NCBI GenBank assembly: GCA_963698975.1
Contig: CAVOSV010000001.1
Coordinates: forward strand, 98,514 to 162,513
Reading direction: 5' to 3'
Length of the DNA stretch: 64,000 nucleotides
DNA from: an uncultured Gemmatimonadales bacterium
GTDB taxonomy: Bacteria; Gemmatimonadota; Gemmatimonadetes; Gemmatimonadales; GWC2-71-9
A model generated the notes under the pieces. It was not told where the DNA came from, did not search any database, and saw nothing but the letters and a program-made list of their open reading frames with translations. The position numbers and the translations under genes were made by a program. Position 1 is the stretch's first letter, and every line of letters begins with the position of its first letter. This document shows, piece after piece, positions 403 through 49,829 of this stretch.

Positions 403-1064
403 ATGCCCGCTGTTCCCCATCCCAAACGGTTCGGCGTTCTCGGCTCGGGCGAGGTGGGCCAGGCGCTGGCCAAGGGGCTCGCCGCCAACGGCTACGAGGC
501 GCGGATCGGAACCCGCTCGCCGGGCAAGCTGGCCAAATTCTCCCGCAGCACCGGGATCGAGGAAGGCACCTTCTCCTCGGTGGCCGCGTGGGGCGAGGCT
601 GCGGTGCTGGCGGTGCTGGGGACAGCGCGCGCTGGAGGCAATCGATCTCGCCGGCGCCCGACAATCTCAATGGCAAGCTGGTGATCGACACCACCAATCC
701 GATCAGCAACGACCCGCCGGTAGACGGGGTGCTTCGCTATTTCACCGGACCCAACGAGTCGCTGATGGAACGGCTGCAGGCGGCGCACCCCCGCATCGCG
801 TTCGTCAAGGCGTTCAATAGCGTGGGCAGCGACCTCATGGTGCACCCGCTCCTGTCCGGCGGTCCGCCCACCATGTTTTTCTGCGGCAACGATGCCGGGG
901 CCAAAGCGGTAGTGGCCCGGCTGCTGGAGCACCTCGGCTGGGAGGGTGCGGATATGGGAAGTGTTGTCGCGGCTCGAGCCCTGGAGCCGCTGGCTCAGCT
1001 CTGGTGCATTCCCGGTTTTCGAGAGAACGACTGGACCCACGCCTTTCGGCTGCTCCGGGTCTGA
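403..1064 (+). pseudogene. NADPH-dependent F420 reductase-like / NAD(P)-binding Rossmann oxidoreductase, frame broken twice
   Basis: The Rossmann motif FGVLGSGEVGQALAKGLAANGYE is in frame 1 (ORF 403..684). ALEAIDLAG is in frame 2. PDNLNGKLVIDTTNP...FFCGNDAGAKAVVARLLEHLGWEGADMG runs to the stop at 1064 in frame 3. The two 1-nt shifts are near 629 and 653. Confidence 0.7.
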
Positions 1065-1102
1065 AGCGGGCCCTTACCCAGCTGACATTCACTGGAGGAG
1101 AC

Positions 1103-1327
1103 ATGTGCAGGAACATCAAGCGTCTGAGACATCCCGATCATCCTCCGACCGACGAGGAGCTGCACAGCGCTGCGTTGCAGTTCGTGCGGAAAATCAGCGG
1201 CTTCCAGGCACCGTCACAGGCCAACCAGGAGGCCTTCGATCGGGCGGTACATGACGTCGCCGCGGTCTCGCGCGCGCTGTTCGATAGCATCCGAGTACGG
1301 GGACGCCCCTATGCCGAGTCGGCATGA
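1103..1327 (+). CDS. DUF2277 family protein
   Basis: Internal ATG at 1103 is preceded by GGAGGAG. MCRNIKRLRH...TDEELHSAALQFVRKISGF matches the conserved DUF2277 N-terminus. Confidence 0.7.
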   Translation: MCRNIKRLRHPDHPPTDEELHSAALQFVRKISGFQAPSQANQEAFDRAVHDVAAVSRALFDSIRVRGRPYAESA

Positions 1328-1659
1328 TCAGCCGTATCTGGCGAGGATGGACTACCGCCCGAAACGCCGATGCATACGAGGGGCTGCTCAAGGCGGAGAT
1401 TTTCACCGGCATCATCGACCGCGGGATCACCGGATTTCAGGGCATGGATCTTCTGCGCCGTGAGGTAGAGGAGGGCGTGGAGTTCGTCACCATCATGTGG
1501 TTCGACTCTCTGCTCGCTGTGCGAACCTTTGCCGGCGAGGACTACGAGCAGGCCGTGGTTCCCGCCAAGGCCCGCCAGCTGCTGATCCGCTTCGATGAGC
1601 GATCGGCCCACTATGAAGTGCGCGAACGGCGGGGGCCTGGCAATGGCCATGCGGCCTGA
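1324..1659 (+). CDS. antibiotic-biosynthesis-monooxygenase (ABM)-like small protein
   Basis: 111-aa ORF with an ATGA overlap onto the preceding gene. Ferredoxin-like ABM pattern (VEFVTIMWFDSLLAVRTFAGEDYEQAV). Confidence 0.55.
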   Translation: MISRIWRGWTTARNADAYEGLLKAEIFTGIIDRGITGFQGMDLLRREVEEGVEFVTIMWFDSLLAVRTFAGEDYEQAVVPAKARQLLIRFDERSAHYEVRERRGPGNGHAA

Positions 1660-1681
1660 CTCTCATCCCGGAGATCCCGAT

Positions 1682-2176
1682 ATGCGCATCGCACCAGTAT
1701 CGGCGGTTCTCGCGGCACTGCTCCTGCTAGTCAGTTCTCCCTCGTCCTCGTCAGCCCAGACTCAGGGGTCCCGCTACATAAATCCGCCGAGCCTCACCAA
1801 ACCCAACGGCTATACCCACGTCGTTGTTGCCCCGGACAACCGCACCGTGTACGTGGCTGGGCAGGTTGCCTTGGACAGTACCGGCCAGCTGATTGGTGCG
1901 GGCGACTTCAAGGCCCAGGCCCAGCGGGTCTACGAGAACCTGCGCCGGGCGTTGACCAGCGTCGGCGGGTCAATGGACGACGTGGTGAAGACCACCACGT
2001 TCATCACTGACATAAAGAACCTGCCGGCCTTGCGCGAAGTCCGGGCCCAGGTCTCCCGGTCCGGCCGCCCGCCCGCCAACACGCTGGTGGTGGTCTCCAG
2101 CCTCGCCCGGCCCGAGCTGATGATCGAAGTCGAGGCCGTTGCCGTGCTGAGTCAGAGCGTGCGCTTTGCGCAGTGA
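1682..2176 (+). CDS. RidA/YjgF/L-PSP family protein with signal peptide
   Basis: Start at MRIAPVSAVLAALLLLVSS (signal-like). Core YVAGQVALDSTGQLIG...DDVVKTTTFITD...IEVEAVAV is typical of RidA. Confidence 0.8.
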   Translation: MRIAPVSAVLAALLLLVSSPSSSSAQTQGSRYINPPSLTKPNGYTHVVVAPDNRTVYVAGQVALDSTGQLIGAGDFKAQAQRVYENLRRALTSVGGSMDDVVKTTTFITDIKNLPALREVRAQVSRSGRPPANTLVVVSSLARPELMIEVEAVAVLSQSVRFAQ

Positions 2177-2239
2177 TGTCACGCTCGAGGTAGTTCTCCA
2201 AGTTCTATCGCCATAGACTCCTGAACTCCGGAGGTTGGG

Positions 2240-6652: not shown

Positions 6653-7072
6653 ATGCTGCGAAAGAGCTGGGTGCTGGCTGGGATGCTCCTGCTCGCGTGC
6701 GGAGGAGATGACGGCTTCAACCCGACGCCCGAAACCGTGGCGGGAACCTATCAACTCACAACTCTCAAGGAGACGCAGAACGGGATTACCCTGGATCATC
6801 TCGCCCTGGGAGTTACGGCGGAGCTGATCCTGGCGCCCCAAGGCACCGCCACCGGTCACCTCTTTGCTCCCCACAGTGCGGAAGATGGTAGCGACCTGGA
6901 CACCGATGTAACCGGAGGATGGAGCTTGAGCGGCACCACCGTCACCCTGAGCCTGGATCAGGACCTCTTGTTCAACGGCCTTACTCTCACCGCCGAGCCC
7001 AATCAGCTTCGGGGCAACCAGACCCTGCCGGGCAATATTGCGGTCGAGATCGTGTTCACCCGTACGCAGTAA
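6653..7072 (+). CDS. hypothetical lipoprotein
   Basis: GGAGG before the ATG. Lipobox LLLACGG. No family assigned. Confidence 0.6.
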   Translation: MLRKSWVLAGMLLLACGGDDGFNPTPETVAGTYQLTTLKETQNGITLDHLALGVTAELILAPQGTATGHLFAPHSAEDGSDLDTDVTGGWSLSGTTVTLSLDQDLLFNGLTLTAEPNQLRGNQTLPGNIAVEIVFTRTQ

Positions 7073-7083
7073 GCGGATTCCTC

Positions 7084-8032
7084 GTGCAACGATCCATTCT
7101 GGGGCTGCACCATGTGACCGCCACGGTAAACGAGGCCCAGCCCGACCTCGATTTCTACCGCAGTACTCTCGGTCTTCGGCTGGTGAAGAAGACGGTGAAC
7201 TTCGACAATCACAACGTCTACCACTTCTACTATGGAGACGAGCGGGGCGCGCCGGGAACCATCTGGACCACCTTTCCCTACGGCGGCTGGGGCGTGGCAC
7301 CTGGCCGGCACGGCGCTGGCCAGATCACCACCACCTCCTTCTCGGTACCTGCAGGATCGCTTTCGCGTTGGATGCGTCCGGTTGCAAGCCAAAGGCCTAT
7401 TGGTCCAGCAGAACAGTGCCAACGGGAGGAACGCGATCATCGTCACCGACCCCTCCGGACTTCAGGTCCGACTGATCGAGGCGGCGGACGACCCTCGAAC
7501 ACCGTGGACCGGGAACGGCCTTTCTGCAGACATGGCCATTAGAGGTCTCCATGGTGTGACGCTGACGGTAACGGCCCCGGAAGCGAGCGTGAGCTTTGCC
7601 CGGGAGTTGCTCGGCTTCGAGGTCGTAGATGAAGCAGAAGGTCTGGTGCGGCTGGCCGTGAATGGCGATCTGCCGGGCCACGCCCTGGAGCTGAGTTATG
7701 GAGACGACGCTCCTCCAGCACGCAACGGGCTGGGCACGGTGCACCACGTTGCCCTAGCCATTACCGATGAAGACGAACAGAGACGGCTGCGGCAAGAACT
7801 GATCTCTCGCGGCATTTCTGTTACCGAGGTGCTGGACCGGCAGTATTTCCGTTCGATCTACTTCCGCGAGCCCGGAGGGGTGCTCTACGAGGCAGCTACG
7901 ATCGCTCCCGGATTCACTGTGGACGAGCCGCTCGCGGGATTAGGACAGGAGCTCAAGCTTCCTCCGTGGGAGGAAAAGAATCGCGCGGAGATCGAGCGCA
8001 ATCTGCCGGTCATTGACCCAGCTCAGCGTTGA
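7084..8032 (+). pseudogene. ring-cleaving dioxygenase / VOC (glyoxalase) family, two-domain, one frameshift
   Basis: GTG at 7084 gives ILGLHHVTATVNEAQPDLDFYRSTLGLRLVKKTVNFD in frame 1. RLQAKGLLVQQ...IRGLHGVTLTV...VHHVALAI...YFRSIYFREPGGVLYE continues in frame 2. The shift is near 7378 (cgtCCgg). Confidence 0.75.
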
Positions 8033-12644: not shown

Positions 12645-12725
12645 ATCGTTGCAGGATTGACCGAGCACCACCGGCGGCGGGCCCAAGGGTTGGACCCGCC
12701 GCCGTCTGCTATAGGATTTCGACAA

Positions 12726-14928
12726 ATGAACCAACGACTGGGCCTGCGCGCGCTGTCCTGGGCCCAACTGTTCTTCAGCCTCCAGCCTGGCGGCTCAGGC
12801 AAGCTCGCCGCAGTCCCCGGACAGCACTTTCCTGCTGCAGAGCACCGATCCGGCGCGCCGCCCCTCCCCTTTCATCGGCAATGGTCATCTGGGCATGGTG
12901 GTGCCGGCGCTGGGGCTTGGCCCCGCTCCAGCCTACATGACCGCGCTCTTCGAGGAGGCTCCGCGCGATGTTCCGCGCATTGTGGTGGTCCCTGCCTGGG
13001 GCACCCTTGGCCTGTCCAACGGAAGCCGCTGGCTGGCCGCTGACTCGAGCCCAGCTGCGGTAGTCAAGGACTATCGCCAATCCGTCGATATGCGCTCCGG
13101 TACCGCGCTCACCAGCTACGGCTGGGAATCAGGCTCTCGGAGAATGACCGTTCGGTCGCAGACGTTTATTTCGCGGGCGGCTCCGTCTCTGGCGGTGACC
13201 CGCCTGGATCTGACTCCGGGATACACCGGTCGGGTGGGGGTGCGCTTTGCGCTGACCGGATGGCCTCCGCCCCAGCGTCTGGCGCTGGGCACCCTCCGCC
13301 GGGCGGATCCGAGCTGGGGGCCCAAGGACATCTGGTATCCCGGCCACATGATCGTTCGCTCCCGCCAGGTCACACGGACCGCGAACGGCGCCCAGCTCAC
13401 CATGGCGTCGCTGCCCGAAGGGCGCCCTACCCTGCTTGCCCAGGCGCTGGCGCTGAGTTGGCCCCACGCGCTGGAGAATGCCACGGTTCACACCACCGCT
13501 TCGGGCGACACCGCACTGGTGGAGCTGAGCTTCGACGGCATGGAGGGCAGAACTTACAGTTTCAGTCAGGTCGCTAGCGCCCTGGCCTCAGCTACCGAGC
13601 CTCATCTCGTCACCCGCGCGGGCAACGAGGCCAGAGCCGCCTTGGAGCGGGGCTTCCGTGCGCTCGCGGAAGCCAATGCGGAGGCATGGGGCCGTCGCTG
13701 GGAGAGCGACATCGAGATCGAGGGCGACCCGGGTCTGCAGCGGGTCGCACGGTCCATGCTGTTCTATCTGCTCTGCAGCTCCGACTCCGCCACCTCGATG
13801 GGAATCGGTCCGATGGGTCTGTCCAGCGCGGGGTATTACGGCCACGTGTTCTGGGACTCCGATACCTGGATGTTTCCGTCGCTCCTGATCACCCATCCGG
13901 ATATCGCGCACTCTCTGGTGGCCTTCCGGGCCCGGACCCTGCCGGCCGCTCAAGCCAACGCAAAGACCAACAAATTCCGCGGCGCGCAGTATCCCTGGGA
14001 AGCGGACGAGCAGGGCCGGGAGACCACGCCCTTCTTCGCGGTGCAGAACGCCCATTCTGAAATTCACGTCAACGGCGACGTCGCCCTGGCCCAGTGGCAG
14101 TACTATCTAGCCACCGGCGACTCCGCCTGGCTCGCGCGCGAGGGCCTTCCGGTGATCCGGGCAACGGCTGACTTCTGGGTCAGCCGCGCCAGCTACGACT
14201 CCGCCGGTGGCCGCTACCACATTCGGAACGTGGTCTCGGTGGCCGAAGGGCTGATTGGGGTGAGCGACGACGCCTACACCAATGCCGTGGCTCGGCGAAA
14301 TCTGCAGATCGCCGCTGAGGCAAGCCGACGAGTGGGCGCTCAGGTCGACCCCCGCTGGAGCGAGGTCGCCGGTAAGCTGCATCTGCCGTACGACTCCGCC
14401 AGCCAGTACTTCCGTACCTACGAAGGGGCTCCCGACTCAACCCTGGGGGACGTGACTCCGCTCCTGAGCTATCCGCTCGGGGTCGAAATGAGCGAACAGG
14501 CCAAGCGCTCCCAGCTGGAGCAGGCGGTCGGCAAACTCCTCAAGGAGGGGCCCGGCGCGATGATGGGCTCCACCCTGCTCTCGGTCGATGCGGCGGAGCT
14601 GGGCGACCGGGCAATGGTCGATTCGCTGCTGCCCCACAGCTATCGGAGCTGGCTGCAGGGGCCCTTCCTGATGCTCTCCGAGACTCCCGACAAGAAGGAC
14701 GCGGTGAACTTCGTGACCGGAGCCGGTGGGTTTCTCCAGCAGGTGCTCTACGGGTACACGGGACTGCGCTGGGGCGAGAAGGGACTGGAGCCTGCGTTCA
14801 ATCCGGTGCTGCCGTCGCACGTGAAGCGGCTCACCTTGCACAACGTGTACTCCAGGGGGAAGCGCTACGATGTGATCGTGGACTCGTCGGGACGGCGGAT
14901 GATTCCGCACCAGGAGTCCGCGAGATGA
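12726..14928 (+). pseudogene. glycoside hydrolase family 65-like protein (secreted), frameshift inside the signal-peptide region
   Basis: MNQRLGLRALSWAQLFFS (ATG 12726) is in one frame. ASSLAAQASSPQSPDSTFLLQSTDPARRPSPFIGNGHLG continues in the frame of ORF 12895..14928. The shift is near 12780. The catalytic-domain motif GYYGHVFWDSDTWMFPSLL is GH65-like. Confidence 0.7.
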
Positions 14929-17481
14929 TGGGCTTTTTCTACCTCGTCGCGTTGGTAGTGGGCGCGAATCAGTACTTGGGTTCTGCGGGAGACGATGCCA
15001 ACGAGATCTCGGCCACTGCAGTTTGCCCGCGGGACCCGGGTGTCCTGAGCACGTGCCAGGACTTGCGGCAGGACGTAGGGCTCCGAGTAGCGAGCGTAGC
15101 AAGTACGAGAGCGTCCGAAGGACACCCGGGTCCCGCGCCAATTCGCAGTGCTGAATCAGGAAAGCCGGTCGAGCCGGTACTCGCGTTTCCCGATCCCGAG
15201 CTCGACGACACCGCCGCCTATCAAGGCTACCAGACCCGCTTCTACCGCGATTCCAGGAACAACACCGTTCAGATCTATCTCCAGCCGCAGACCTCGCGCG
15301 CGGTGCTGGTCTGGGCCGATGCCGCCAACGAAAGCGTAGGCTTCAACGCTCGGGACTCCCAGGGGAGACCGACCCGCCTCTTCTGGGGCGCGAGTGCGGC
15401 TGAGGTGGCTGATTCCGATTCCACCAGGAGCATAGAGTTCCGCCTGACCACTCCCCTCTCCGCCCTCCAGCTGGGCTGGTTCGTGCTCGGTTCGATGCGG
15501 GTGGAGCGGGACTTCGTCTACGCCAAGGACTACGAGAAGCCGTTCGGGGGTTCCTATCGCGTGGCGGAGGAGTCTCTCCTGGTGGCCGACGTGGCCCGGC
15601 TTCCCGTGGACGAGCAGAAGCGTCATTTGGAGCTGCTCCATGCCCAGAGCTTGGAGCACCTCCGGAGTCGTCTCGTGCCGGCTTTCGAGCTGAAGCCGGG
15701 GGACACCGTCGAAACCATCCGGATCGAGCGACCCTCGCTCGATCGGTCGCAATTTCCTCCGGCTCGAGCTCCGAGTAGATCCCCGGCGGGTGAAGGCCCG
15801 CGTGAAGGATCAAATCGTCTCACTGGAGACTCGGCCCGGATCGCCCCTCCGCTTCAGCGTGCGAGTCAGCACCAATGCGGCGCCGCTTACTCCTCTTTCG
15901 AGACAGGAAATCTTCAATAGGCAGTTTCTGGATTTCCTGGCCCGCGACAGCACCGGCAGCGACAGCGCCGCCATTGCGGCCCGCCGGCTGGAGCGGCAGG
16001 TCCGTGGCGTCGAGCTGCTGAGCAGCAGGGAGAAGTTGATGGCGGGTCTGCCCAACTTCGCCACTTACTTCGGCCGCGACATGATGATGACCGCGCTCAT
16101 GATGCGGCCGATCTGGTCGCCGGACATGCCGGAGCACGTGATCGCCAGCGTGTTGCGGAAACTGGGGCCCAGGGGAGATGTGAGCCACGAGGAGGCGCTC
16201 GGCGGCCAGGCCATCCGGGAGCACGCGGTACTGTACGACTCTCTGCTGGGCCACTACTTCAAGTCCGGCACCACCGGCCGGAGCAAGGCGGACAGTGCCC
16301 TGGTCCAGGCCCGGGAACTGCTCGCGGACCTGCAGCGGACCCGCGAGAACTACCACATGATCGACGACGAGTTTCAGCTGCCGGTGCTCGCCGCCCGCTA
16401 CCTGGCCGATTCCCTGGTGCCGGCTGATCGCAAACGCGCCTTTCTCCAGGAGAAGTCGGACAGCGGAGCGTCTCGACTGGGCCTGCTATTGCGCGAGCTC
16501 AACCTGGTCTCCTCCCTCAGCCTTCCTTATGTCGAGCATCCCACGGCCAAGAGCCTGGTGAGCTTCCCCAAACGGGACTCGACTCACTGGCGCTCCGCCA
16601 GCTGGCGGGACAGCGACGCGGGTTACGCCGGTGGCCGCTTTGCCATGGACATCAATGCCATCTGGGTGCCCCAGGCGCTGGAGGCCATCGGAGTCATTCT
16701 CCACTCGCTGAAGGAGCTTGGCCTCGACCAGGACTCCAGCACATCGGGCGACAGCGCCGCCGCCCTACAGCGATTTCGCACCGACTCGACCTATCTCCGC
16801 CGTGCGATCGACACCTGGAAGGGCGCCCGCAAGCACTTCACGGTAAAGCTGTCTCCGGCTCAGATTCGCAATGGCATCAATGCCAAGCTGCATTCGTTGC
16901 CCTCCGCTGAGCGCGCCTACTGGAATGGAGTTCTCACCACACAGAAGGAGCCTGCCGACTCACTCACGTTCCTGGCTCTCTCGCTGGACCCAACGGGCAA
17001 ACCGATCCGCGTGGTGAATACCGATCCTGCTACGGAGCTGTTTCTCAATCCGGATCTTGCCCCCGACCTGGTGTCCCAGGAGATCCAGCCGGTGCTTCGC
17101 CCGTACCCTGTCGGACTGTTCGTAACTGGCCTGGGTCCGCTGGTAGCCAACGATGCCTACGCCACCCCCGCCATCTGGGATCGCTTCCAGAAGGATCAGT
17201 ACCACAGTCCCCGCGTCGTTTGGGGCCGTGAGGTCAATCTCCTGTTCCTCGGCTTGGCCTATCATTTAGAGAAAACCGGAGACCCCAAGCTGCGGGACGC
17301 ACTGCAGCGCATCTTATCGGCTGTAAGTGCATCCTCAATGCAGCACAACGAGCTCTGGAGTTATGAGATCAAAGGCGGGAAGCTCAAGCCGATGCGCTAC
17401 GGCACCAGTTCGGACGTGCAGCTGTGGAACACGACAGAGCTGGTGGTCGAATTCGTCCTCTCTAGACTGGAGGGACGGTGA
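14925..17481 (+). pseudogene. large uncharacterised glycosidase-like protein (GDE_C-like FGRD motif), one frameshift
   Basis: ORF 14925..15920 and ORF 15790..17481 join as ...IRIERPSLD/GRNFLRLELRVDPRRVKARVKDQIV at ~15744. LPNFATYFGRDMMMTALMM resembles the amylo-alpha-1,6-glucosidase type six-hairpin motif. It overlaps GH65 by ATGA and DUF1080 by GTGA. Confidence 0.5.
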
Positions 17482-18236: not shown

Positions 18237-19454
18237 CTACCGCAGGCACAAAGGCTCCAGACCCGCCGGTGGGAAATCCAGTGTCCGCCCTTGCTCCGCG
18301 CTCATGTAGGCGGTCATCAGGAGCTTCACCACCTCGAGGCCATCATCGAAGGTGAGCCGCAACGGCTCCAGGCCGAGAAAGGCGCGTACGAAGTGGCGAT
18401 CCTCCGCTTCGTAGCCGTACGCCACCGGTTCCTGAGCCACCACAGGCATGAGCCCCACGTCGGCGTTCTGCTTTTCTATCAGGTCCTCTCGCGGCCTGGC
18501 AAGTGTCTCCCTGCTGAAGAAGAGCTGGAGCCCGCTATTCAGCGTGTTCATGACATCGAGTACTCGGGGCCCAGCAGCTCGGCGGACAGTCTCAGACCCG
18601 GGCCGACGAAGCTCCACGATGTCGTTGCCTCGCCCAAGACCGTCTGCCCATCCCCGGTCTGGAACTCGATCGTAAGACTGGCAAAGTCTTCCGCTGGAGC
18701 TCGTCCGTAGTTCACGTCGTTACCCATGAGCTGGGTGAGCCGTTCGGCATATGGAGGCTGCGTCCACTTGAGACTGGCAATGCGGGCGGTAACGCGCACC
18801 GGCCGAACCGACTCCAGAGACGCTCCGGGTTCCGTGAGCAGATGCCGGACCAGAAGTGCCGAGTGGCACATCAATGTCGTTGAGCACCCCACCGCCCTGG
18901 AGCTGGCCGCGCCAGAACCACGGCGCATGGGGGCCGCTGTGCTCCTCGGCTGCCCGCGCCAGATAAGGCCGGCCGGACACCGATGCTCCCCGGCTCCAGA
19001 TCAGTGCTCGACCAATCTCAACCTGGGGAGCGAACACCTGGTTCTCCAGGTAGCCGTGCGCGACGCCCGCGGCCCGCACCAGCTCGGTTATCCGCAATGC
19101 TTCGGCAACGTTCCGGGCCAACGGCTTCTCGCAGGCAATGCCCAGCAGCGGGGCGGCGCGACGGCTTACCCCGTGGCAAATTTCTTCCACGTTCTCGACT
19201 CGGGCGTGGTTGGGGCCGCAGAGCCATATTGCCTGAATGGCCGGATCCGCTACCAGGTCGCTGATGGAATCGTACGGACGGGCTGGACCTACATCGAGTC
19301 TTCGTGCCAGATCCGCCGCGTTACCAGCGTGCTCCCGGCTGGGACTCCAGACACCGAGCACATCGGCATCACGGACGCCGGTAAACGCCTGGAGGTGGAA
19401 GCGGGCGTTAAAGCCACTACCGATAACCCCGATTCCCAGCCGTCTGTTCGCCAT
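18237..19454 (-). pseudogene. Gfo/Idh/MocA family oxidoreductase, two frameshifts
   Basis: MANRRLGIGVIGSGFNARFHLQAF (Rossmann) is in the frame of ORF 18720..19742. The middle part is in ORF 18548..18928 and the C-terminus in ORF 18237..18617. Shifts are near 18865 and at the GGGG run 18566-18569. Confidence 0.8.
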
Positions 19455-19458
19455 TCCG

Positions 19459-28800: not shown

Positions 28801-29057
28801 GCCGAGCAGGTGGACTTCTCGCCGTCCACCCCGCTGATCCCGAAGATCGCGTCCTCCACCGGGTCGATGATCTCCCGGGTAACCTCGGAAGGCGACGCGC
28901 CCGGATAGACGATGGTTACGCCCACCACCGGCTGCTGGATGTCGGGAAACTCGTCGGTGTGGAGATTGAGCAGGGCGAAGATGCCGAATACCACCAGGGC
29001 GACCATGGCGGTCACCGTCACGATCGGCCGGCGAATGGCAAAATCGGAGATGAACAT
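25874..29057 (-). pseudogene. RND (AcrB/HAE1-type) efflux permease, one frameshift
   Basis: MFISDFAIRRPIVTVTAMVALV starts at 29057 inside the long ORF 28335..30512. The body is ORF 25874..28540. The junction ...LADPGVTR/RFARIAGVAQVSVVGG is at CCCGGG 28562-28567. Confidence 0.9.
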
Positions 29058-31807: not shown

Positions 31808-32389
31808 CGGGACCTGCGCACGCCCACACCAATGGCGCGCAAAAAGAGTCGAATGTACTCGTCGAGGGCTTCATCGGGATCGTTGCGATAGATGTCCCGC
31901 ATGATCTCGCGCCCCATCGCATCGGCGAAGAGCGCTCCCATCAACATGGCGGAAGCGGCAATCTCATTGAACGGAGCCTTTGCCAGCCCAACCTCTCGCA
32001 GCCGGCGCAGATACCGGCTGAGCGCCCGCACTGCCAGAGCCGTTGGACTGTTTTCACTGGAAAAGATCCCGGGGTGCTCCGCGATCTCGCCCATGCAGGT
32101 GCGAATCAAAGCCCGGCGATCTGCGCAATTCTGTGATGTGAGTCCGGGCCCATTCGCGGAGCTCGCGGGCCGGATCGCGGGGATGCTCGGGCAGGAGCTC
32201 AGGCAGATCGCTGGTGCCGGCCCGCACGATCGCTTCGCGGATCAGCGCGTCCTTGGATCCGAAATGGCGGAACAGGGTGATCTCGTTCACCCCGGCCGCG
32301 GTGGCGATCCGGCGGGTGGTGGCGCCCCGGTAGCCTGATTCGGCGTAAATCCGGGCGGCGGCGTGGAGCAGCTGGTCGCGAACCGACAT
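31804..32389 (-). pseudogene. TetR/AcrR family transcriptional regulator, one frameshift
   Basis: The HTH LLHAAARIYAESGYRGATTRRIATAAGVNEITLFRHFGSKDAL is in ORF 32054..32554 (start 32389). The C-terminal ligand domain is in ORF 31804..32109. The shift is near 32120. Confidence 0.8.
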
Positions 32390-32421
32390 GGCGGCCAGTA
32401 TAGTGCAAGCTCTGTCTGCAA

Positions 32422-32437
32422 GCAAGTGGCCACTTAC
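32422..32437. promoter_or_regulatory. candidate TetR operator (near-perfect 16-bp palindrome GCAAGTGGCCACTTAC)
   Basis: The core AAGTGGCCACTT (32424-32435) is a perfect 12-bp palindrome. It lies 35 nt upstream of the tetR start in the divergent region. TGCAAGC occurs twice just before it. Confidence 0.4.
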
Positions 32438-32446
32438 AATTACACC

Positions 32447-32475
32447 TTGCGTGGACTGCACCCCCTGGTTAGCAT
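32447..32475 (+). promoter_or_regulatory. possible sigma-70-type promoter for the riboswitch-led transcript
   Basis: TTGCGT, a 17-nt spacer, then TAGCAT, ending ~25 nt before the aptamer. The match to consensus is weak. Confidence 0.3.
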
Positions 32476-32499
32476 TTTTGCGTCGCTCCGAGAGGGGCG

Positions 32500-32590
32500 A
32501 TGCCGAAAAAGGCAAACCCGTCGTGAGGCGGGGACGCAAAGCCAGGAGTCCCAAGCAGTTGTCGTCGGGATCGTCCGGTTGCCGAAGCGC
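32500..32590 (+). promoter_or_regulatory. c-di-GMP-I (GEMM-I) riboswitch aptamer
   Basis: GAAAAAGGCAAACC-CGUC-GUGA-GGCG-GGGACGCAAAGCC...CCGGUUGCC reproduces the conserved GGCAAACC, GNRA-capped P1b hairpin, GGACGCAAAGCC and closing GGUUGCC blocks of the Vc2-type aptamer. It sits ~160 nt upstream of the OM barrel gene at 32749. Confidence 0.7.
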
Positions 32591-32748
32591 GAGCCTCCAG
32601 CTCTACCCTTCGGCCTATTCCATCCGGGATAGGCGTTCCTGTTTCCGACACCCTGCTCGACCGAGATCGCAGTCGCCGCCCCGTGGCGCTGCGTTGACGA
32701 TCGACCTCGACGCGCAGGGGACATCCACACTCTACGTCGGAGACATAC

Positions 32749-33437
32749 ATGCGCCGCAGTCTCATGGTTCCGCTCGCCCTGCTTGCGATCGTGAAGTCGC
32801 CTGCAGCGGCCCAGACCTGTCAGGGTATGGCCTCGTTTTCTGCCGGCCAGCTCCAGGTCGCCGGTAACGCCCAGTTCCCCGATGGCGGCAAGGTCTGGGG
32901 CGGCAGCCTGACCTATGGTCTGCCCTCCGGCCTCTACGCTGGTGCCGACCTGTCCAACACCTCTGCTCGACAACGATGGTGGCAGCTCGCTGGGTCTCGG
33001 CGCGCACGCCGGTTACCAGATGAAGCTGGGCCGCACCCAGAAGGTGGCGCTCTGCCCGGTGGCCAACCTGTCTCTCGGCATGGGCCCGGATGACAAGCAG
33101 GCTGATATCAACTCGTCTCAGACTAACGCGAACTTCGGTTTCGCGCTGGGCACCGAGATGGGCGCCAGCCAGCAGATGCGGATCATCCCGACCGCCGGTC
33201 TGGGACTGCAGTACAGCAAGTTCAAGGTCGACCAGGCCGGCGCCACGGTGCTGCGAGGCTTCTGAGACCTACGGCCTGGCCCGTCTCGGCGTCGGCTTCG
33301 TGTTCAACCAGCAGATCTCGGTTCGCCCGACCGTTGACATCCCGGTGGGCTCGGATCTGCAGAACGATCCGACCTTCGGCGTGTCCGTGGGCTATAACTT
33401 CGGCAGCAAGGGCGTCAGCAAGAGCCGCCGCCACTAG
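32749..33437 (+). pseudogene. small outer-membrane beta-barrel protein, paralog 1, two frameshifts
   Basis: Signal peptide plus AAQTCQGMASFSAGQLQVAG in ORF 32749..33093. The middle part is in ORF 32915..33265. The C-terminus ETYGLARLGVGFVFNQQISVRPTVDIPV...VGYNF is in ORF 33090..33437. It is collinear with paralog 2. Shifts are near 32960 and 33258. Confidence 0.65.
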
Positions 33438-34385: not shown

Positions 34386-34487
34386 CACCTTAGCGCAACG
34401 AATCGATTGGTCTGCAACTTGCCCTCACCCTCGCGCGGCCACGCGAATGCGGGCGCCGAGTTCCTCGGCACATTTTCTCCAAACAAC

Positions 34488-35046
34488 ATGAGAGGCGACA
34501 TGGGTACACTCCGGGCTACTGGATTCTGCGCGCTCCTCACGGCTGTGCTGGCCACCTCGGCCTTCGCCCAGCAGGCGCAGACGCGGCAAGGGCTGTGGGT
34601 CGGCGGCGGCATGGGCTACGGCTCGCTGGGCCTGACCTGCGATGGCTGTAGCGGCGTCGATCGTGAGGGTGGAGTCAGCGGGTACGCCAAGGTCGGCGGC
34701 ACCCTGCGGCAGAACATCCTCCTGGGCGTCGAGATGAACGGCTGGACCAAGAGCGAGTTCGGCGGTCGGGTGACGATGGGCAACATGTCGGGTGCGGCTT
34801 ACTGGTATCCGATGCCGACCCAGGGCCTCTTCATCAAGGCCGGCGCCGGCTACTCGGTGCTCTCGGTGGACGATGGGATCAGCACCGCCGACGATTCCGG
34901 CTTCGGGCTGCTCGGCGGCCTGGGTTACGACGTCCGGGTGGGCAAGAACCTGTCGATCACTCCGGTCGCGAACTACTTCCGCGGCGCGTTCGATGGGCGG
35001 CTCCGCCAACGTGCTGCAGCTCGGCGTGGGCGTAACCTCGCACTAA
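34488..35046 (+). pseudogene. outer-membrane beta-barrel domain protein (third barrel gene), one frameshift near the 3' end
   Basis: MRGDMGTLRATGFCALLTAVLATSAFAQQ signal, then GLWVGGGMGYGSLG...GLGYDVRVGKNLSITPVANYFRGAFDG. SANVLQLGVGVTSH-stop follows in the frame of ORF 34792..35046. The shift is near 34995. Confidence 0.65.
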
Positions 35047-35125
35047 GCACGATCACAGTCGAAGGCCGGCCCTGACGGGGGCCGGTAACAGCGCCAGCGG
35101 GGGGATCACAGGAAGACCTGGTCCT

Positions 35126-35161
35126 CCCGCTCACGCTTTTGTTTTTCCCGCTCACGCTTTT
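35126..35161 (+). promoter_or_regulatory. two copies of a 15-nt box CCCGCTCACGCTTTT spaced 21 bp apart, upstream of osmC-like gene
   Basis: Exact copies at 35126-35140 and 35147-35161. The second ends 10 nt before the ATG at 35172. Confidence 0.35.
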
Positions 35162-35171
35162 ATTTCCCCTC

Positions 35172-35724: not shown

Positions 35725-37730
35725 TTATCTGCGTCGGGGACCCGCCTGCGGCGGGTGCGTTGCGGCAACGTTTTTCTGCTTTCCAGCTAGATCTCTCTCC
35801 TTACTAATCCCTTCCCAGGCGGTATAGGCCGAATCGAGCTCGGCTCGGGCAATCTCGAGCTCGCGGCCGAGCTGCTGCGCCTCGAGCACGCCGTCCTTGG
35901 TGGTATACAATGCGGGATCTTCCAGCCGGGCTCTGATCGAAGCCACCCGCTCCTCGCAGGCGCTCACCCGCACCTCGGCCTCCTCCAGGACTTTCCGCGA
36001 GTCTCGCTTGGACGACGCTTCGCGTTTGCGGGTGTTCTCGCTCCGGCGGGTCTGCTTCCGCTCGTGCACCCGCCGGAGCGACTCCTCCTCCGCAGCCGCC
36101 ACCCGCGCCGCGTGAGCGCGCTCGGTGCTGGCCTGCTCCCACTCCTCGAACCCGCCCGGGTAGTCCACGATCCTCGACTCGTGCAGCACCCAGGTTCTGG
36201 TGGTGAGGCCGCGGAGCAGAGCCCGGTCGTGGCTCACCAGGATCACCGTGCCCTCGAACGCCTCGATCGCGTCCTCCAGCGCCTCGATCGATTCCACGTC
36301 GAGATGGTTGGTGGGCTCGTCGAACACCAGGAGGTTGGCCGAGCTGAGCATCATCATGGCCAGCGCTACCCGGGCGCGCTCACCGCCGGAGAGACTGCCG
36401 GCTTTCCGAAGCACGCTGTCGCCGGAGAAGCCGAAGCGGCCGAGGTGGCCCTGAATGGCGCCGCGGTTCCAGCTAGGCCGAAGATCGTTGATCAGGTCGT
36501 AGAGCGAGCGGTCGGAGGGAACCTGGGCCAGGTCCTGACGGTAGTGGGCGATCTGGACCGAGGGAGGGATCCGCACCTCGCCTCCGTCGGGCGGACGCTC
36601 GCCCACCATGCAGCGGATGAGCGTGGTCTTCCCCGCCCCGTTCGGTCCGACCAGTCCGACCACATCGCCCCGGCGAACCGTGGCCGAGAAGTCGTGCAGC
36701 AGCACCCGCTCGCCGATGGCAACCCGCACGCGCTCCAGCAGCAGCGCCTGATCCCCACCCCGGGCGGCCGGCTCCAGCCGCAGCGCCATGGTGCCATCCG
36801 CTCCGGTGGGCTCGCTCAGCCGGCTCACCCGCTCCAGACGGCGCCGGCGCCCCTTCGCTTGGGCGCTGTTCTGTCCGGCGATGTTGCGGCGGATGAAGTC
36901 CTCCTGCGACGCGATTGCCCGGGACTGCTTGTCGAACGCGCGCTGCTGGGTCAGCCGCCGCTCGGCCCGCTGGCGCGAGGAAGTTCTCGTAGTCACCGGT
37001 GTAGGTGAAAACGGTGCCGGCCTCGAGGTGCAGCACGTGGTCGACCACCGCCTGAAGGAACACCCGGTCATGGCTGATGAGGAGCACCGTGGCGTCGAGA
37101 CCTGGCGAGATACTCCTCCAGCCAGCGGGTGGTCTCGAGGTCGAGGTGGTTGGTTGGCTCGTCCAGCAGGAGCACGTCGGCCGGGCTCACCAGCTGCTGC
37201 ACCAGGCCCAGCCGGCCCCGCTCGCCTCCGCTCAGCCCGCTGAGGGACTGGGTGCGAGCCTGGTCCGGATCGAAGCCCAGGCCGTGCAGCACCGCATCGA
37301 TCCGGGGAGCCAGGGTGTAGCCGCCATCGCGCTCGAACCGCTCCAGGTCGCGATCGTAGCGCGACAGCATCTCCGGGGTGCAGCGATCTCCCGCCTGGGC
37401 CAGCGCCTCACCCTGCCGCGCCAGCGACCGCTCCAGCTCCAGCAGCTCGGCGAAGTGTCCCGCCGCTGCTTCCCAGACCGTGCTCGCTCCCGGAAACTCC
37501 CGGTGCTGGTCCATCAGCGACACCCGAAGCCCTCCGCCCCGCGCCACCGTTCCGCGGGTGGGCTCGGCCTGGCCCGCGATCAGGCCGAACAGCGTGGTCT
37601 TGCCGCTGCCGTTCCGCCCGATGATCCCCCACTTCTCTCCCCGGGTGACCGTAAAGGTCACGTCCTGGAAGAGACGGGTCGCTCCGAATTCGACGGCCAC
37701 TCCCGAGAGCGAGAGCTGGGTCACGAGCAC
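35725..37730 (-). pseudogene. ABC-F family ATPase (two ABC domains plus linker), two frameshifts
   Basis: Domain 1 (GRNGSGKTT, LSGGERGRL, LLLDEPTNHLD) is in ORF 37068..37730. LLISHDRVFL is in ORF 36473..37087. The linker, domain 2 (GPNGAGKTT, LSGGERARV, LVFDEPTNHLD) and the coiled-coil tail are in ORF 35725..37071. Shifts are near 37080 and 36975. Confidence 0.85.
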
Positions 37731-37806
37731 TCCGATGCCGATTGGAATTCAATGAGGTGCGGTGCGGAAAGTAATACTGAGGCGGAACCCGGGGAACCTG
37801 GCGATT

Positions 37807-40596
37807 TCAGAACTGAACGGTCGCCAGGTTGGAGCACACGGTCTTCCCGGTCTCGCAAATCTTGAAGGTGTAGTTCGAGGCGCCCGGCAGCAGGCGAGAG
37901 TTGGTCCACCGCCCGTCGTTGACCTGTGCCATCAGGAACTTCCCATCCTGGTACACGTCCACGTTGGTTCCCTTGGCGCCGCTCCAGGCGAGCATCATGT
38001 ACTGCCTGGTGGCGTCCACCTGGGCGTGACGTTGAGCACGATGCCGCTGGTGGCGACGGTGATCGCCGCGGTGGACGTGCCGGTGGCGCCCTTGTTGTCG
38101 GTGGCCGTCTGGGTCACAGTGTAGGTGCCGGCGCTCGCGTAGGTCTTGCTCAGACTCCGCACGCTCGAGCTGGTGCCGTTCCCGAACGTCCATCTCCAGG
38201 ACGCAATGGTGCCATCCGGATCGACGCTCTGATCGTTGAACCGGCAGGTGAGCCCCGTGCAGAGCGCCACGAAAGCAGCGCGCGGCGCCAGGTTCGAGGA
38301 CGGAGCAGTCACCGTCACCGATGCAGACTTTTCGTTGGTGGCCCCGTCGTCATCGGTGGCCTGCAGCGTCACCGTATAGGTCCCGCCTGCGGTGTAGGTG
38401 TGGCTTGGATTCTTCACCGTTTCAGTCCTGCCGTCGCCGAAGCTCCAGGCTCCAGCCGGTCACCAGACCGTCTCCGTCGGTGCTGCCGTCGGTGAAGCTA
38501 CAGGTGAGTCCGCTGCAGGTCTGGCTGAACTGCGCGGTGGGCGCGCTGTTGGGCGGGGGAGGTCCGATCGTCACCGTATGGGTGACTGCATTCGTCGCCC
38601 CATCGTCGTCGGTGGTGGTGAGGGTTACCTGGAACGATCCCTCAGCCCCGTAGGTGTGCTGAGGGTTGGCCACGTCTGCCGTGGCGTCATCGCCGAAGTT
38701 CCAGCTCCACGCGGTCACCTGTCCGTCCGCGTCGGTGCTGGCATCGTGGAAGCTGCAGTCGAATCCGGTGCACTCCTGGGTGAACGACGCCACCGGCGGA
38801 GCGTTGAGCGGCGGCTGGGGATCGCCCACCTGGCCAACCTTCACGATCTTGGCTACCGACGGCACGCCGCTCCCGTTCAGCAGGAAGAGCATGTAATGCC
38901 CTGGAGGCGCCAGGTTGGGGTTGCCTGGGGCTGAAATGCTGAGACCGCCCGCGATCCGGCTGAACGACAGCCACTCGAACCGCTGGCCCATGTCGAATGC
39001 GTGGGTCACCGAGCCGAGCCGGATCAGGCTCACCTTGCTGATGTCGGCCGCGTCCGGCGTCCCCACCTGGAATGAGGCGTCGTACCCGATGGCGTCGGGC
39101 GCCGAGCTGATCACCGGGCGCGGCCCCTGGAACAGATAAGGCGGCGAGAACAGTTCGGCGTTCCGCTGATCGGGACCCGATTCGCCGCTGCCGGCGTGCA
39201 GCACGCGGCCGTCGGGCAGGAGGATAGAGGTGGAGTGATAGATCCGGTCGATCGAGTTGCTGGCCAGCCGGGTCCAGATGCCGGTTTGCGGGTTCCACAA
39301 CTCAGCGGCGTGCACGGCCAGGGTGCAGATCGTTGAATGCCGTGCCGCCGGTGCCACCGGTCGCCAGCACCTCTCCAGTGGGCAACACCGTCGCATTCAG
39401 GTGCCGCCGCGGGAAAGCCATCGACCCGGTCCACTGCCACCGGGGCGACTGCGGAGGTGAGATCGATGATCTCGGCGGTGTTGGTGGTGTAGCCGCCGCC
39501 GACGTAGATCACCTTGCCCGGTTCGTACATCACCGCCGAGCCGTAGGACCGTGCGCCGTACAGCCGGGGGGCCACCACGGCTCCAGGTGCCGGTGCCGGT
39601 TGGGTCGAGGTAGCGGCTGGTGGCCGTCTCGGCCACGAAGATCTTGCCGTTGGGGGCCACGAATGAGCGGGGATACAAGCGGCAGCGCCAGCGGAGTGAG
39701 CACGTGGGTTGCCCCGTTCGACCAGACCTCCGGGTACTGCACCGAAGCACCCGTGCCGTCCTTGCCGGAAAAGATCACCACGTCGCCGTTGGGCATGGCC
39801 ACGTTGGTGGGATACCACCGGGCGTAGTGCATCGGCGCCGAGCGCGACCAGCTCTGTGAGACCGGGTCGAAGATGGTGATGTCGGGTATGCCGTTGAGCG
39901 ACCACGTTGGCGTCGTTGTTGCCGCCGGTCACCAGCACCCGCCCGTCGGGCAGCAAGGAATGTCCGGAGCAGAAGATGACGGCCGGCGCGGGTACCGCGC
40001 TGAACTGTCCGGTGGCAGGGTCCCACAACTGCGGTGGATCGGAGAAGCCCCAGGAGAGAACCTTGCCGTCGGGAAGCAGACTCACGTGAACGGCGATGTC
40101 GTTCCAGGGAAACGGCGCGCTCCATTCTCCCATGGATGCGCTGGTTGCGCCCTCCGCAAATGAGGCGGACGAGGGAGCCGGTCCGCAGGCCCGGTCGAGA
40201 TTGTTGCGGCGAGTCTCGAGATCGTCGCCCTGATACAGCTCCACCGCGCCGCGCTCCACCGTCTCCACTTCGGTCTCGCTGTAGCCTTCGTCGTCTATGG
40301 AAGCAGGTGGCAGGGTGAGGCTTCCGCTCTCGTCGCTGCCCACCACGTGATAGGTGACCCGAACTACGTCGCGGGTTTGGTTGGTGGCGAGGAACTTGTT
40401 GCCGCAGATGTACACCAGATCGATGGGGCCGAGCGGCCCATCGTGCTCCCCCCGGCTTACGGGAGGGGCCGTGCGAGCCGGAGGGGGCCTGAGCGCTGTC
40501 CAGGCAACCGAGAAGCAAAGCGCCCGCGGCAAGGGAAGCCGTGAGGGCTGACCGATGAGAACGGATTACCGACTCCGCTTGTAATTGGGTGATCAC
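37807..40596 (-). pseudogene. secreted galactose-oxidase/glyoxal-oxidase-like protein (Kelch propeller plus DUF1929-like) with three PKD domains and a C-terminal beta-domain; about eight frameshifts
   Basis: Lipoprotein-like signal (GTG 40596). Propeller pieces WNDIAVHVSLLPDGKVL, HYARWYPTNVAMPNGDVVIFSG, YPRSFVAPNGKIFV, YGSAVMYEPGKVIYVGGG, FPRRHLNATVLPTGEVLATGG and RIYHSTSILLPDGRVLHAGSG are in alternating frames. PKD signatures follow (SWSWNFGDD...HTYGAEGSFQVTLTTTDDDGATN, three times). Shifts are near 40450 (C6 run), 39897, 39690, 39585, 39443, 39326, 38449 and 38028. Confidence 0.75.
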
Positions 40597-47533: not shown

Positions 47534-47559
47534 GCCACCTCCTTATGCACCGCCAAACC

Positions 47560-48203
47560 TCAGGCCGTCGGCTTGCCCAGCTTCTTCTGAATCTGCTCCG
47601 CATGGTCGAGGTGCTTCTGGATGACCGGTCCGGCCTGCTCGATCAGCTTCTTCAGCTCCTCGTTCTGGGCCGCGTCGTGCGCCTTGCCGGCCAGGTCGAG
47701 CACCGCCTTGTGAATGCCGATCTCCTGGTCGATGTAGGTCCGGTCGAAGGCCGCGCCCTTGGCCGCACCCTTGAGCGCCGTCATTTCCGACTGCACCGCG
47801 GGCTTGAGCGGATCATCGGCCGGCAGCTGCGGGGTCACGCCCAGCCGCTTGGCCAGCTGCTGCCCCTGGGCACGGAGCGCGTGATGCTCGCCCATCATCA
47901 GCTTGGCGAATGCCTTCACGTCGGGATTGGTTGCTTTGGTGACCGCGTAGTGCGCCGGCCGCGCTATCGGCCATGTTGGCCTCGTCCAGCAGGGCCACGA
48001 TGTTGGCATCGGACAGCGCGCCCGGCTGACGCCGACTGTGAGCCCATCGCCATCGAGGTATCGGCCGCTCCGCTGGTCATCGCGCTGGAGCTGGTATCGG
48101 AGCTCATCGCGGTGTTGTCCGAGGTCCGCTCCTTCTTACACCCGGCAATCAGGACGAGCATTCCGGCCGCCACGGCGGCTCGGCGAGTAATGTGATCAAG
48201 CAC
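47560..48203 (-). pseudogene. DUF4142 domain-containing lipoprotein, two frameshifts
   Basis: The lipobox LIAGC N-terminus is in ORF 47964..48203. IVALLDEANMADS is in ORF 47813..47998. TKATNPDVKAFAKLMMGEHHAL...DRTYIDQEIGIHKAVLDL is in ORF 47560..48009. Shifts are near 48000 and 47955. Confidence 0.7.
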
Positions 48204-48289
48204 TTGCGCCTCCTAAAGTTGAGACCTGTTACCTCGGGAAACCCTTTATCTCTGCTTCCGGCTCAGCACCCCGGGTAGTAATACGAAGT

Positions 48290-48994
48290 TTGCCTCAGAA
48301 AAGCAAGATAGTTTATACTTATCTCGACTTTCACGCGGGGAGACCATTGCGAGACCTCAAGCGTGCCTCACAGGGAACCAGCGGCCGAATCCTCGAGCTG
48401 CTTCGTCGCGGGCCGATGACGGTGGACGATCTGGCCCGGGCGCTGGACCTCACCCGCACCGCCGTGCGGGCGCAGCTGGCGACGCTGCTCCGGGACGGAC
48501 TGGCCGAGGTGCGGGGCAGCCGGCGGGGAGCGAGCAAGCCGTCCCATGTGTATGGGGCGACGGCGCAGGCCGAGCTGCTCTTCTCCCGGGCCTACGTCCC
48601 GATCCTGACCCAGCTCATGCATGTGCTGGCTCACCGGCTGCCCGAGACGCAGTTCGACGCGGTGATGCATGAGGTAGGACGCCGGCTGATGGACGGACGC
48701 GCGGCGCCCCGCGGCACTCTGCGGGAGCGGGTGGCCGGAGCGAGCGCTCTGCTGAACGAGCTCGGCGGCCTGACCGAGATCACCGAGGAGCAAGGCGGCT
48801 TTCTGATTCGAAGCCACGGCTGCCCCCTGGCGGCGGCCACGGCAAACCATCCCGAGGTCTGCAACGCGCTGGAGAGTTTGTTGAGCGAGTTCGTGGGCGC
48901 CAGCGTCACCAAATGCTGCGACCGCTACGACCGGCTGCGCTGCTGTTTCGAGATCGGGATACCCGATCAGCCGAACAGTCAGGTCGTCCATTGA
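48290..48994 (+). CDS. winged-helix (ArsR-like) transcriptional regulator with Cys-rich C-terminal domain
   Basis: SGRILELLRRGPMTVDDLARALDLTRTAVRAQLATLLRDGL is the HTH. The C-terminal part has HGCPL...VCNALE...KCCDRYDRLRCC. The start codon is uncertain (TTG at 48290). Confidence 0.65.
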   Translation: MPQKSKIVYTYLDFHAGRPLRDLKRASQGTSGRILELLRRGPMTVDDLARALDLTRTAVRAQLATLLRDGLAEVRGSRRGASKPSHVYGATAQAELLFSRAYVPILTQLMHVLAHRLPETQFDAVMHEVGRRLMDGRAAPRGTLRERVAGASALLNELGGLTEITEEQGGFLIRSHGCPLAAATANHPEVCNALESLLSEFVGASVTKCCDRYDRLRCCFEIGIPDQPNSQVVH

Positions 48995-49018
48995 CCGGAC
49001 GTTCGTGAGGAGAGTGAC

Positions 49019-49829
49019 GTGACTTTCATGGCTTACCGGAACTGGCGCAATGCTGAGGCCGACGCCGATCCGCTGCTCGAGCGAAGGCTCAGGCTGTTCA
49101 CCCAGATCATGCGTTCTCCTCGACAAGAGTTCGCGCTGCAGTTCGAGGAACATGACGAGTGTGCGGCGTTCGGAGGCTCGGTGCGGGGCCGGCTGTGCCA
49201 GCATCTGGCACAGCTGCCGCCGCGCCGGCTGGAACCGGGCCAGCACCTCTACCGGACGGGAAGTCCCGCCCGAAGTCTGTTTCTGGTGCTGAGCGGGCTG
49301 ATCAAGACGGGCGCGATCTCTCCCGAGGGCGAGGAGCTGACGCTCCGGCTCTGCAAGCCGGGCGATCTGGTGGGAGAGCTCTGTGTCTGCGGCGGCAACC
49401 GGCGGGAGGACGCCGTCGCTCTGGAGCCGAGCGCGGTGGTGGAGATGTCGGTGGCGGCATTGCTGGGACGACTGCGGGACGATCCTGAAACCGCGGTGGA
49501 GTTTGCCGGCGCGGTGTGCGACCGTCTGGCCGACGCGTACGAGCAGATCGAGAGTCTCTCCTGGGACACGGTGCTCTACCGGCTGGTGCGCACCCTGCTC
49601 CGGCTGGCCGAATGAATTGGGCCAGCCGGCGGAGAACGGCACCAGCCTGGCGCATCACATCAAGCAGGAGGAGCTGGCCCGGCTGGTGGGAGCCCGGCGG
49701 GAGGTGGTGTCCGGGCTGCTCAATCGATTGCGAGCCAGCGGGCACATCAGCTACTCGGCCCGAGGGGCGATCACGGTCCATCCCGGAGGACTCCATCGGT
49801 TTCTGGAGGCCAGGAGCCGGGCGGGATGA
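49019..49829 (+). pseudogene. Crp/Fnr family transcriptional regulator, one frameshift
   Basis: The cNMP-binding domain (LFLVLSGLIKTGAISPEGEELTLRLCKPGDLVGE) is in ORF 49019..49615. The HTH (IKQEELARLVGARREVVSGLLNRLRASGHI) is in ORF 49383..49829. The shift is near 49610. Confidence 0.8.

Follow-up and report, generated by a model that had tools for sequence, protein, structure and literature searches.

The 64,000-nucleotide stretch analysed here (the window) belongs to the three-contig, MAG-type assembly of a soil bacterium of the Gemmatimonadales (G000), and 15 of its otherwise conserved genes are broken by 27 single-nucleotide frame shifts. On the sequence comparisons described below, we consider it very probable that these shifts are not mutations in the organism but single-base errors left in the consensus of a metagenome assembly built from long reads only, in which case the organism most likely carries all 15 genes intact. 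The original prediction, made from this DNA alone, had already preferred sequencing or assembly error to decay. That preference is supported by the restriction of the shifts to one assembly, a 25:2 excess of insertions, the lack of stop codons, the disruption of rpoB and a like pattern in two other contiguous MAG-type assemblies.

To place the shifts, the window was aligned with syntenic contigs of the same-genus assemblies G011, G056 and G062 at 85-92% nucleotide identity, and with G069 over positions 1-17.4 kb of the window only. Reading frames were traced by tblastn with the relatives' open frames as queries, and gene identities and split domains were checked by Pfam on the relatives' orthologues and the window ORFs. 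The proposed total of about 27 shifts in 15 genes proved exact, with a single-base gap in the relatives' alignments at, or within a few nucleotides of, each site (Table 1). As had been read from the six frames, the conserved proteins run on in a neighbouring frame, the window copies switching frame at these sites. Two details required correction: alignment to the relatives moved the shift in the RND transporter from 28562-28567 to 28546, and the DUF4142 gene was reassigned to the minus strand. Pfam backs 14 of the 15 gene identities, with consecutive frame pieces matching consecutive parts of one model, and the large protein described as unknown is indeed without a Pfam match.

Table 1. Genes of the window interrupted by single-base shifts, with the relatives in which each shift is absent (positions are those of the window)
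Gene	Coordinates	Strand	Shift	Frames and domains	Relatives lacking the shift
F420-dependent NADP oxidoreductase	391..1064	+	+1 at 627, 656	tblastn frames 1>2>3; intact G011 orthologue matches PF03807	G011, G056, G062, G069
VOC/glyoxalase	6997..8032	+	+1 at 7376-7379	Frames 1>2; PF00903 split over ORFs 6919-7542 and 7232-8032	G011, G056, G062, both G069 contigs
GH65 glycoside hydrolase	12657..14928	+	+1 (A) at 12777	Intact G011 orthologue matches PF03632, PF03636	G011, G062, G069
Conserved 888-aa protein, no Pfam family	14913..17481	+	+1 (T) at 15743	tblastn frames 3>1	G011, G062, G069
Gfo/Idh/MocA oxidoreductase	18237..19742	-	-1 at 18549/50; +1 at 18874	Intact G056 orthologue matches PF01408, PF22725; window piece 18720-19742 holds the N-terminal domain only	Seen against G056 only
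GMC oxidoreductase	20070..21750	-	+1 at 21484/5	FAD Rossmann N-terminus in ORF 21400-21750; other GMC domains (GMC_oxred) in ORF 20070-21689	G056, G062
RND efflux transporter (AcrB family)	25874..29059	-	+1 at 28546	ACR_tran 172-1020 in ORF 25874-28540; 1-166 in another frame, within ORF 28335-30512	G011, G056, G062
Membrane-fusion protein (HlyD family)	29055..30552	-	+1 at 29339	tblastn frames -3>-1; orthologue matches PF16576, PF13437	G011, G056, G062
TetR-family regulator	31804..32521	-	+1 at 32119-32122	Frames -1>-2; TetR_N in G011 open frame	G011, G062
Outer-membrane beta-barrel gene 1	32698..33437	+	+1 at 32964, 33254	Orthologue matches PF13505	32964: G011, G062; 33254: G011 (G062 has a 5-nt gap difference there)
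Outer-membrane beta-barrel gene 2	34407..35075	+	+1 at 34995-34998	Orthologue matches PF13505	G011, G062
ABC-F ATPase	35725..37748	-	+1 at 36975/6, 37100	First ABC_tran in ORF 37068-37730; linker, second ABC_tran and CTD in ORF 35725-37071	36975/6: G011, G056 (G062 gap at 37008 instead); 37100: G011, G056, G062
Galactose-oxidase-like Kelch/PKD exoprotein	37807..40596	-	-1 at 38020; +1 at 38448, 39326, 39450, 39577, 39678, 39900, 40476	Intact G011 frame of 1008 aa with Kelch, GO-like_E_set and 4 PKD domains	All eight: G011, G056; 38020, 38448: also G062
DUF4142	47560..48212	-	+1 at 47951, 48031	Window ORF 47560-48009 covers model positions 21-138 only; intact G011 frame covers 2-138	Seen against G011 only
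Crp/Fnr-family regulator	49019..49829	+	+1 (A) at 49611	cNMP_binding in ORF 49019-49615; HTH_Crp_2 in the next frame, residues 85-133 of ORF 49383-49829	Seen against G011 only

The shifts had been described as usually one extra base, and this is the case at 25 of the 27 sites, the other two each lacking one base. Genome-wide, comparison of G000 with G011 gave 26 clean insertions and 2 deletions. At a GC content of 64% off-frames remain open, which made a classification of these genome-wide indels by ORF span too noisy; third-position mismatch periodicity was used in its place. A link to short G or C runs, and hence to a homopolymer-sensitive chemistry, was not upheld. Changes from one to two bases or from two to one account for about 6 of the 27 sites, none lies in a run of at least 5, and at about 17 a foreign base stands between unlike neighbours; the inserted base is the same as an adjacent one in 8 of the 26 genome-wide insertions, which is about the chance level. 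Since foreign-base insertions prevail and no run of at least 5 is involved, an unpolished long-read consensus fits these data whereas a homopolymer-sensitive chemistry does not. Inspection of the 27 site contexts revealed no shared motif, slippery sequence or common four-base word, and no A/T runs of the kind associated with transcriptional slippage.

Comparison with orthologues in close genomes found every one of the 27 shifts to be absent from the relatives covering it (between one and four of G011, G056, G062 and G069 per site). Eight of these comparisons are with one relative (18550, 18874, 33254, 47951, 48031 and 49611; 36975/6 and 34995 in part). As a control, 25.6 kb of this region was compared between G056 and G011; the pair shows 0-1 coding shifts, a background far exceeded by the 15 of G000. 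Contig counts of 440 and 640 and k141-style contig names suggest that G011 and G056 were assembled from short reads. G062 (20 contigs) and G069 (MFD09018.bin.2.1) are contiguous MAGs, and both carry private 1-bp indels of their own at sites other than those of G000, at 0.3-0.8 per kb in G062 and as 32 gaps in 2.3 kb in G069. These sequence comparisons indicate that the defect tracks assembly type rather than phylogeny: G062 and G069 are affected, and the two fragmented assemblies, G011 and G056, are in agreement. G062, which has more private 1-bp indels than G000, was dropped as a clean reference and kept for the phase test only. G069 was considered as a second assembly of the same strain, its TonB-receptor protein matching that of the window at 99% in the best tblastn segment; its DNA identity to the window is only 86-95%, making it another relative and not a replicate.

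The lesions extend to an essential gene. The only rpoB locus in the genome (C2:2216008-2220449) lies in three frames, having been split by a private extra base at each of two positions, C2:2216637 and C2:2219779. In G008, rpoB occupies one open frame of 1493 aa, with which each of the three pieces shares 90-99% protein identity. Within the window, the reported lack of in-frame stops is borne out: projection onto the relatives' frames gave about 7,200 codons and not one stop. Estimates of dN/dS on the corrected frames likewise favour error over decay, the pooled omega of 0.145 showing that selection is not relaxed. Ahead of the first shift omega is 0.21, beyond it 0.12, and in intact neighbouring genes 0.069. 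The TetR gene has no stops and an omega of 0.16 on either side of its shift, and the galactose-oxidase-like gene, with eight shifts, has none in 829 projected codons and an omega of 0.26. The most-affected genes evolve faster, omega reaching 0.25-0.38 in the galactose-oxidase-like, first beta-barrel and VOC genes. In the relative's coordinates, third-position mismatch periodicity carries on across the sites; at 15743 the phase is unbroken in G011 coordinates, and in the ABC-F gene it is 17:1:3 on one side and 18:3:1 on the other.

Error density is uneven: the window has 0.3-0.5 per kb, and the other regions sampled have 0.03-0.05 per kb, about 10-fold less. The hot zones are the window, C1:20-150 kb, C1:792-805 kb and C2:376-380 kb. 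A uniform error model does not predict such uneven density. The G000 assembly was most probably produced from Nanopore reads with Flye and light polishing, the platform being suggested by its three-contig, MAG-type form and by long-read relatives in the Microflora Danica Nanopore catalogue. The long-read MAGs of that catalogue (MFD) are Nanopore-only, assembled with Flye and polished by one round of Medaka (PMC12313526), and in metagenome bins below about 40x coverage short-read polishing is needed against frameshift-causing indels (PMC9262707). The uneven density could possibly have arisen in stretches of low read coverage, or from co-assembled mixed strains where the consensus step would have kept an extra base. 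Most of the errors lie outside homopolymers, unlike the classic Nanopore signature, and this counts against the consensus-error reading.

Two alternatives take the shifts to be real. A mutator or relaxed-selection episode might have left genuine insertions in the 15 genes too recently for stops or a raised dN/dS to have appeared. The indels are really in the deposited sequence, many of the affected genes are accessory (efflux pump, outer-membrane proteins, exoprotein), and a regional biological process could in principle raise the density at C1:20-150 kb about 10-fold over other sampled regions. We nevertheless judge recent pseudogenes to be very unlikely, given that the single-copy rpoB is split by like private +1 insertions, that eight indels in one gene are accompanied by no stop, that omega is lower after the shifts than before, that no site is common to any relative, and that like patterns occur at other sites in other contiguous MAGs. 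The insertion excess also contradicts the deletional bias of bacterial mutation, as reportedly described by Mira, Ochman and Moran in 2001. Alternatively, programmed ribosomal frameshifting, transcriptional slippage or quadruplet decoding might restore the frame and leave the genes functional as written, which would suit shifts that are nearly all +1 and are followed by conserved downstream frames. Programmed frameshift sites are conserved among relatives, whereas here the relatives' orthologues are plain and unshifted at every site. On inspection, no motif, slippery sequence or four-base word is common to the 27 sites, A/T runs of the slippage type are absent and two of the sites are -1, and we regard recoding as extremely improbable.

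A further proposal concerns how consensus errors would come about. The extra bases may sit at strain SNPs where a mixed-strain consensus kept both alleles, the hot zones then reflecting microdiversity and not low coverage. Many sites do look like a codon in which two alternative third bases follow one another (GA[T]C, from GAC/GAT, at 15743; GC[G]C at 627; GGC[G] at 656), unambiguous insertions in G062 touch the third codon position in 64 of 78 cases (p=0.002), and the faster evolution of the most-affected genes points the same way. The corresponding codon-position test in G000 gives 12/17 against an expected 2/3 (p=0.48), however, and several insertions fall between codon positions 1 and 2 (28546, 48031, C1:792425 and C1:802547), so that we hold this origin to be possible but on the whole doubtful. 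It seems unlikely that the hot zones mark stretches where at least two co-occurring strains differ, with each extra base beside a strain SNP, or, in a weaker variant, that a minor share of the 27 indels represents true pseudogene alleles at strain level. Were this so, the strain-SNP artefact would allow microdiversity to be read from long-read MAGs.

Taken as consensus errors, the shifts imply no new biology for the 15 genes, and their main value is as a warning. Such indels would distort gene calls, pseudogene counts, coding density and CheckM-type contamination estimates in G000 and in comparable long-read MAGs of this genus, among them G062 and G069, and no apparent case of recoding or pseudogene formation in the G000 genome should be accepted that is not backed by reads. 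Being mostly non-homopolymer insertions, the errors would be missed by homopolymer-aware fixes, and because they cluster regionally, local damage is greater than an error rate averaged over the genome would suggest.

The shifts can be set against three known systems. With programmed +1/-1 frameshifting (prfB, dnaX, IS3 transposases) they share a protein that goes on in the neighbouring frame; they differ in having no conserved site, slippery motif or stimulator, in the unshifted state of the orthologues and in their spread over 15 unrelated families. With the pseudogenes of reductive evolution, as in Mycobacterium leprae or recent host-restricted lineages, they share the frameshifting of many neighbouring genes, but nonsense mutations, truncations, IS insertions and a raised dN/dS are absent here, insertions predominate, the essential rpoB is affected and no lesion is common to relatives. 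Unlike classic homopolymer-tied Nanopore errors, they are mostly foreign bases outside runs, with 25 insertions to two deletions and clustering in hot zones. They most closely resemble the residual indels of Nanopore-only MAGs assembled with Flye and Medaka (PMC9262707, PMC12313526), which are to be expected where a bin has less than about 40x coverage. As here, those indels are single-base and private to an assembly, they fragment conserved and essential genes alike, and they are seen in MAGs of high contiguity rather than in short-read congeners.

We compared the window with four same-genus genomes that have syntenic contigs. These were G011 (440 contigs with k141-type names, short-read-like; 81-92% nucleotide identity to the window), G056 (640 contigs, short-read-like; 84-93%), G062 (a contiguous MAG of 20 contigs, spanning window 1-38.6 kb) and G069 (MFD09018.bin.2.1, a Microflora Danica long-read MAG, spanning 1-17.4 kb plus two short pieces up to 20.1 kb). 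The assembly under study, G000, comprises 3 contigs (3.93 Mb, GC 63.6%, completeness 95.4%, contamination 3.6%), and the relatives of the window's proteins are exclusively Gemmatimonadales MAGs. The original prediction of about 27 single-nucleotide frame shifts in 15 genes was borne out, as blastn placed an isolated one-base gap at each position listed, giving 27 sites in 15 genes. At 25 of these the window has an extra base, and at the other two it lacks one.

Frame-shift sites in the window, each seen as a blastn gap against relatives (extra base unless marked -1, a missing base)
Gene	Site(s)	Strand
F420-type NADP oxidoreductase	627, 656	
VOC	7376-9	
GH65	12777	
888-aa protein of unknown family	15743	
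Gfo/Idh/MocA	18549/50 (-1), 18874	
GMC	21485	
RND	28546	
MFP	29339	
TetR	32121	
Two OM barrels	32964, 33254, 34995	
ABC-F	36975, 37100	
Galactose-oxidase-like/PKD	38020 (-1), 38448, 39326, 39450, 39577, 39678, 39900, 40476	
DUF4142	47951, 48031	minus
Crp	49611	

With the relatives' open frames as tblastn queries, the frame hops in the window copies were visible. Pfam searches confirmed the families of 14 of the 15 shifted genes, and successive frame pieces matched one model piecewise and in order. The RND pieces cover ACR_tran 1-166 in one frame and 172-1020 in another, the Crp gene yields cNMP_binding followed by HTH_Crp_2, and the GMC gene a FAD Rossmann fold followed by the GMC domains. Because of the shifts at 29339 and 28546, a 725-aa open frame on the minus strand (28335-30512) falsely joins the HlyD-family MFP to positions 1-166 of the AcrB-family pump, and an automatic annotator would take it for a fusion protein.

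Comparison with orthologues, which the original prediction had named as a check, found the shifts absent from the relatives, 8 sites being compared with a single relative only. At several sites the indel is absent from G011, G056 and G062 alike, and at five it is absent from G069 too. As a control, G056 and G011 were aligned across 25.6 kb corresponding to a part of the window that has 15 sites; they differ by 0-1 coding shifts, and natural divergence within the genus is therefore not a source of such shifts.

The possibility that these are real, recent pseudogenes is very improbable. Projected on the relatives' codons, the window has 0 stops in ~7,200 codons, in agreement with the absence of in-frame stops noted earlier, and the galactose-oxidase-like gene has 0 in 829 codons with its eight indels. 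Third-position mismatch periodicity, followed in the relative's coordinates, is unbroken across the sites; the two flanks of 36976, for instance, give mismatch counts of 17:1:3 and 18:3:1. The dN/dS check proposed beforehand gave a pooled value of 0.145 (0.21 before the first shift, 0.12 past it), and six intact neighbouring genes gave 0.069. The insertion bias of 25:2 and the lack of any shift common to a relative also argue against decay, as does the fact that essential rpoB is split too. The sole rpoB locus of the genome (C2:2216008-2220449, outside the window) runs over three frames owing to two private extra bases, C2:2216637 and C2:2219779, neither of which is in G011 (93% nucleotide identity there). 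Each piece has 90-99% protein identity to rpoB of G008, one 1493-aa open frame. An rpoB in such a split state is incompatible with a living cell, and the G000 assembly therefore holds false insertions of exactly this kind. That the shifts are recoding sites is more remote still, given that the orthologues are unshifted and that inspection of the 27 site contexts by eye showed no shared motif. Together, these sequence comparisons indicate that the window's frame shifts are almost certainly an assembly artefact. Their biological interest is low; they offer a useful caution when annotating G000 and similar MAGs.

The suggested link to homopolymers did not hold. About 6 of the 27 sites are changes from one to two bases or from two to one, none lies in a run of at least 5, and at ~17 a foreign base stands between unlike neighbours. 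Genome-wide, 8/26 insertions are identical to an adjoining base, approximately the chance level. Clean +1 events occur at 0.34 per kb in the window when measured against G011 (0.5 if all 27 sites are counted), at 0.19 in C1:20-98 kb, at 0.03 in C1:440-720 kb and at 0.05 over 248 kb aligned to 40 arbitrary G011 contigs. Within one contig, C1:20000-150000 and C1:440000-720000 thus differ ~7-10-fold in their density of private +1 insertions. Minor hot spots lie at C1:792-805 kb and C2:376-380 kb; low local coverage and mixed strains are candidate causes of the unevenness. The G062 stretch syntenic to C1:20000-150000 is also ~2x as error-dense. For a consensus retaining both alleles of a strain SNP, we asked whether insertions touch third codon positions; they do so in 12/17 cases in G000 (p=0.48, not significant) and 64/78 in G062 (p=0.002).

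Further gaps of non-3n length occur between genes or where two genes meet (22776, 25823, 32564, 35058-35171, 37784, 47548, 48271). At 22774-22780 the window lacks one G present in G011, G056 and G062 (CCATGGCTA in the window versus CCATGCTA). This gap falls in the 1-2-nt junction of two minus-strand genes, leaves every frame unaffected, and could reflect either true divergence or an erroneous deletion. The ABC-F/exoprotein spacer (37759-37873) and position 48271, past the DUF4142 gene, show 2-4-nt differences from all available relatives which, being intergenic, are not classable as error or real.

Window 53159-63180 holds an array of short cassettes spaced by ~50-110-nt repeats. These end in ...GCAGCTGATGCGCGGTCCGTTAGGCGGC (a GTTRRRY-like core), are paired with upstream GCCTAAC motifs (RYYYAAC-like), and look like integron attC sites; similar repeats occur in many copies in G056, G011 and G062. 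The cassette ORFs match DUF6010, AHSA1/SRPBCC, DinB_2, DUF4185 and DUF4386, and the ORFs scanned included no integrase gene.

Contiguous relatives carry comparable 1-bp indels, private to each assembly and for the most part extra bases. G062 (contig C20) has many, located elsewhere than those of G000 (~0.3-0.8 per kb), and in G069 (C15:101500-121400) the 2.3 kb facing window 15161-17462 contain 32 gaps, at positions where G011, and mostly G062, are ungapped relative to the window. As read from these alignments, the defect is one that tracks assembly type, and gene calls in G062 and G069 are expected to be fragmented too. Bins below ~40x coverage require short-read polishing against frameshifting indels (PMC9262707), and the long-read MAGs of Microflora Danica were built from Nanopore data alone, by Flye assembly and one round of Medaka polishing (PMC12313526). 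The shifts are thus very probably residual consensus errors of a long-read-only metagenome assembly, and we infer that G000 comes from a Nanopore-only data set like Microflora Danica.
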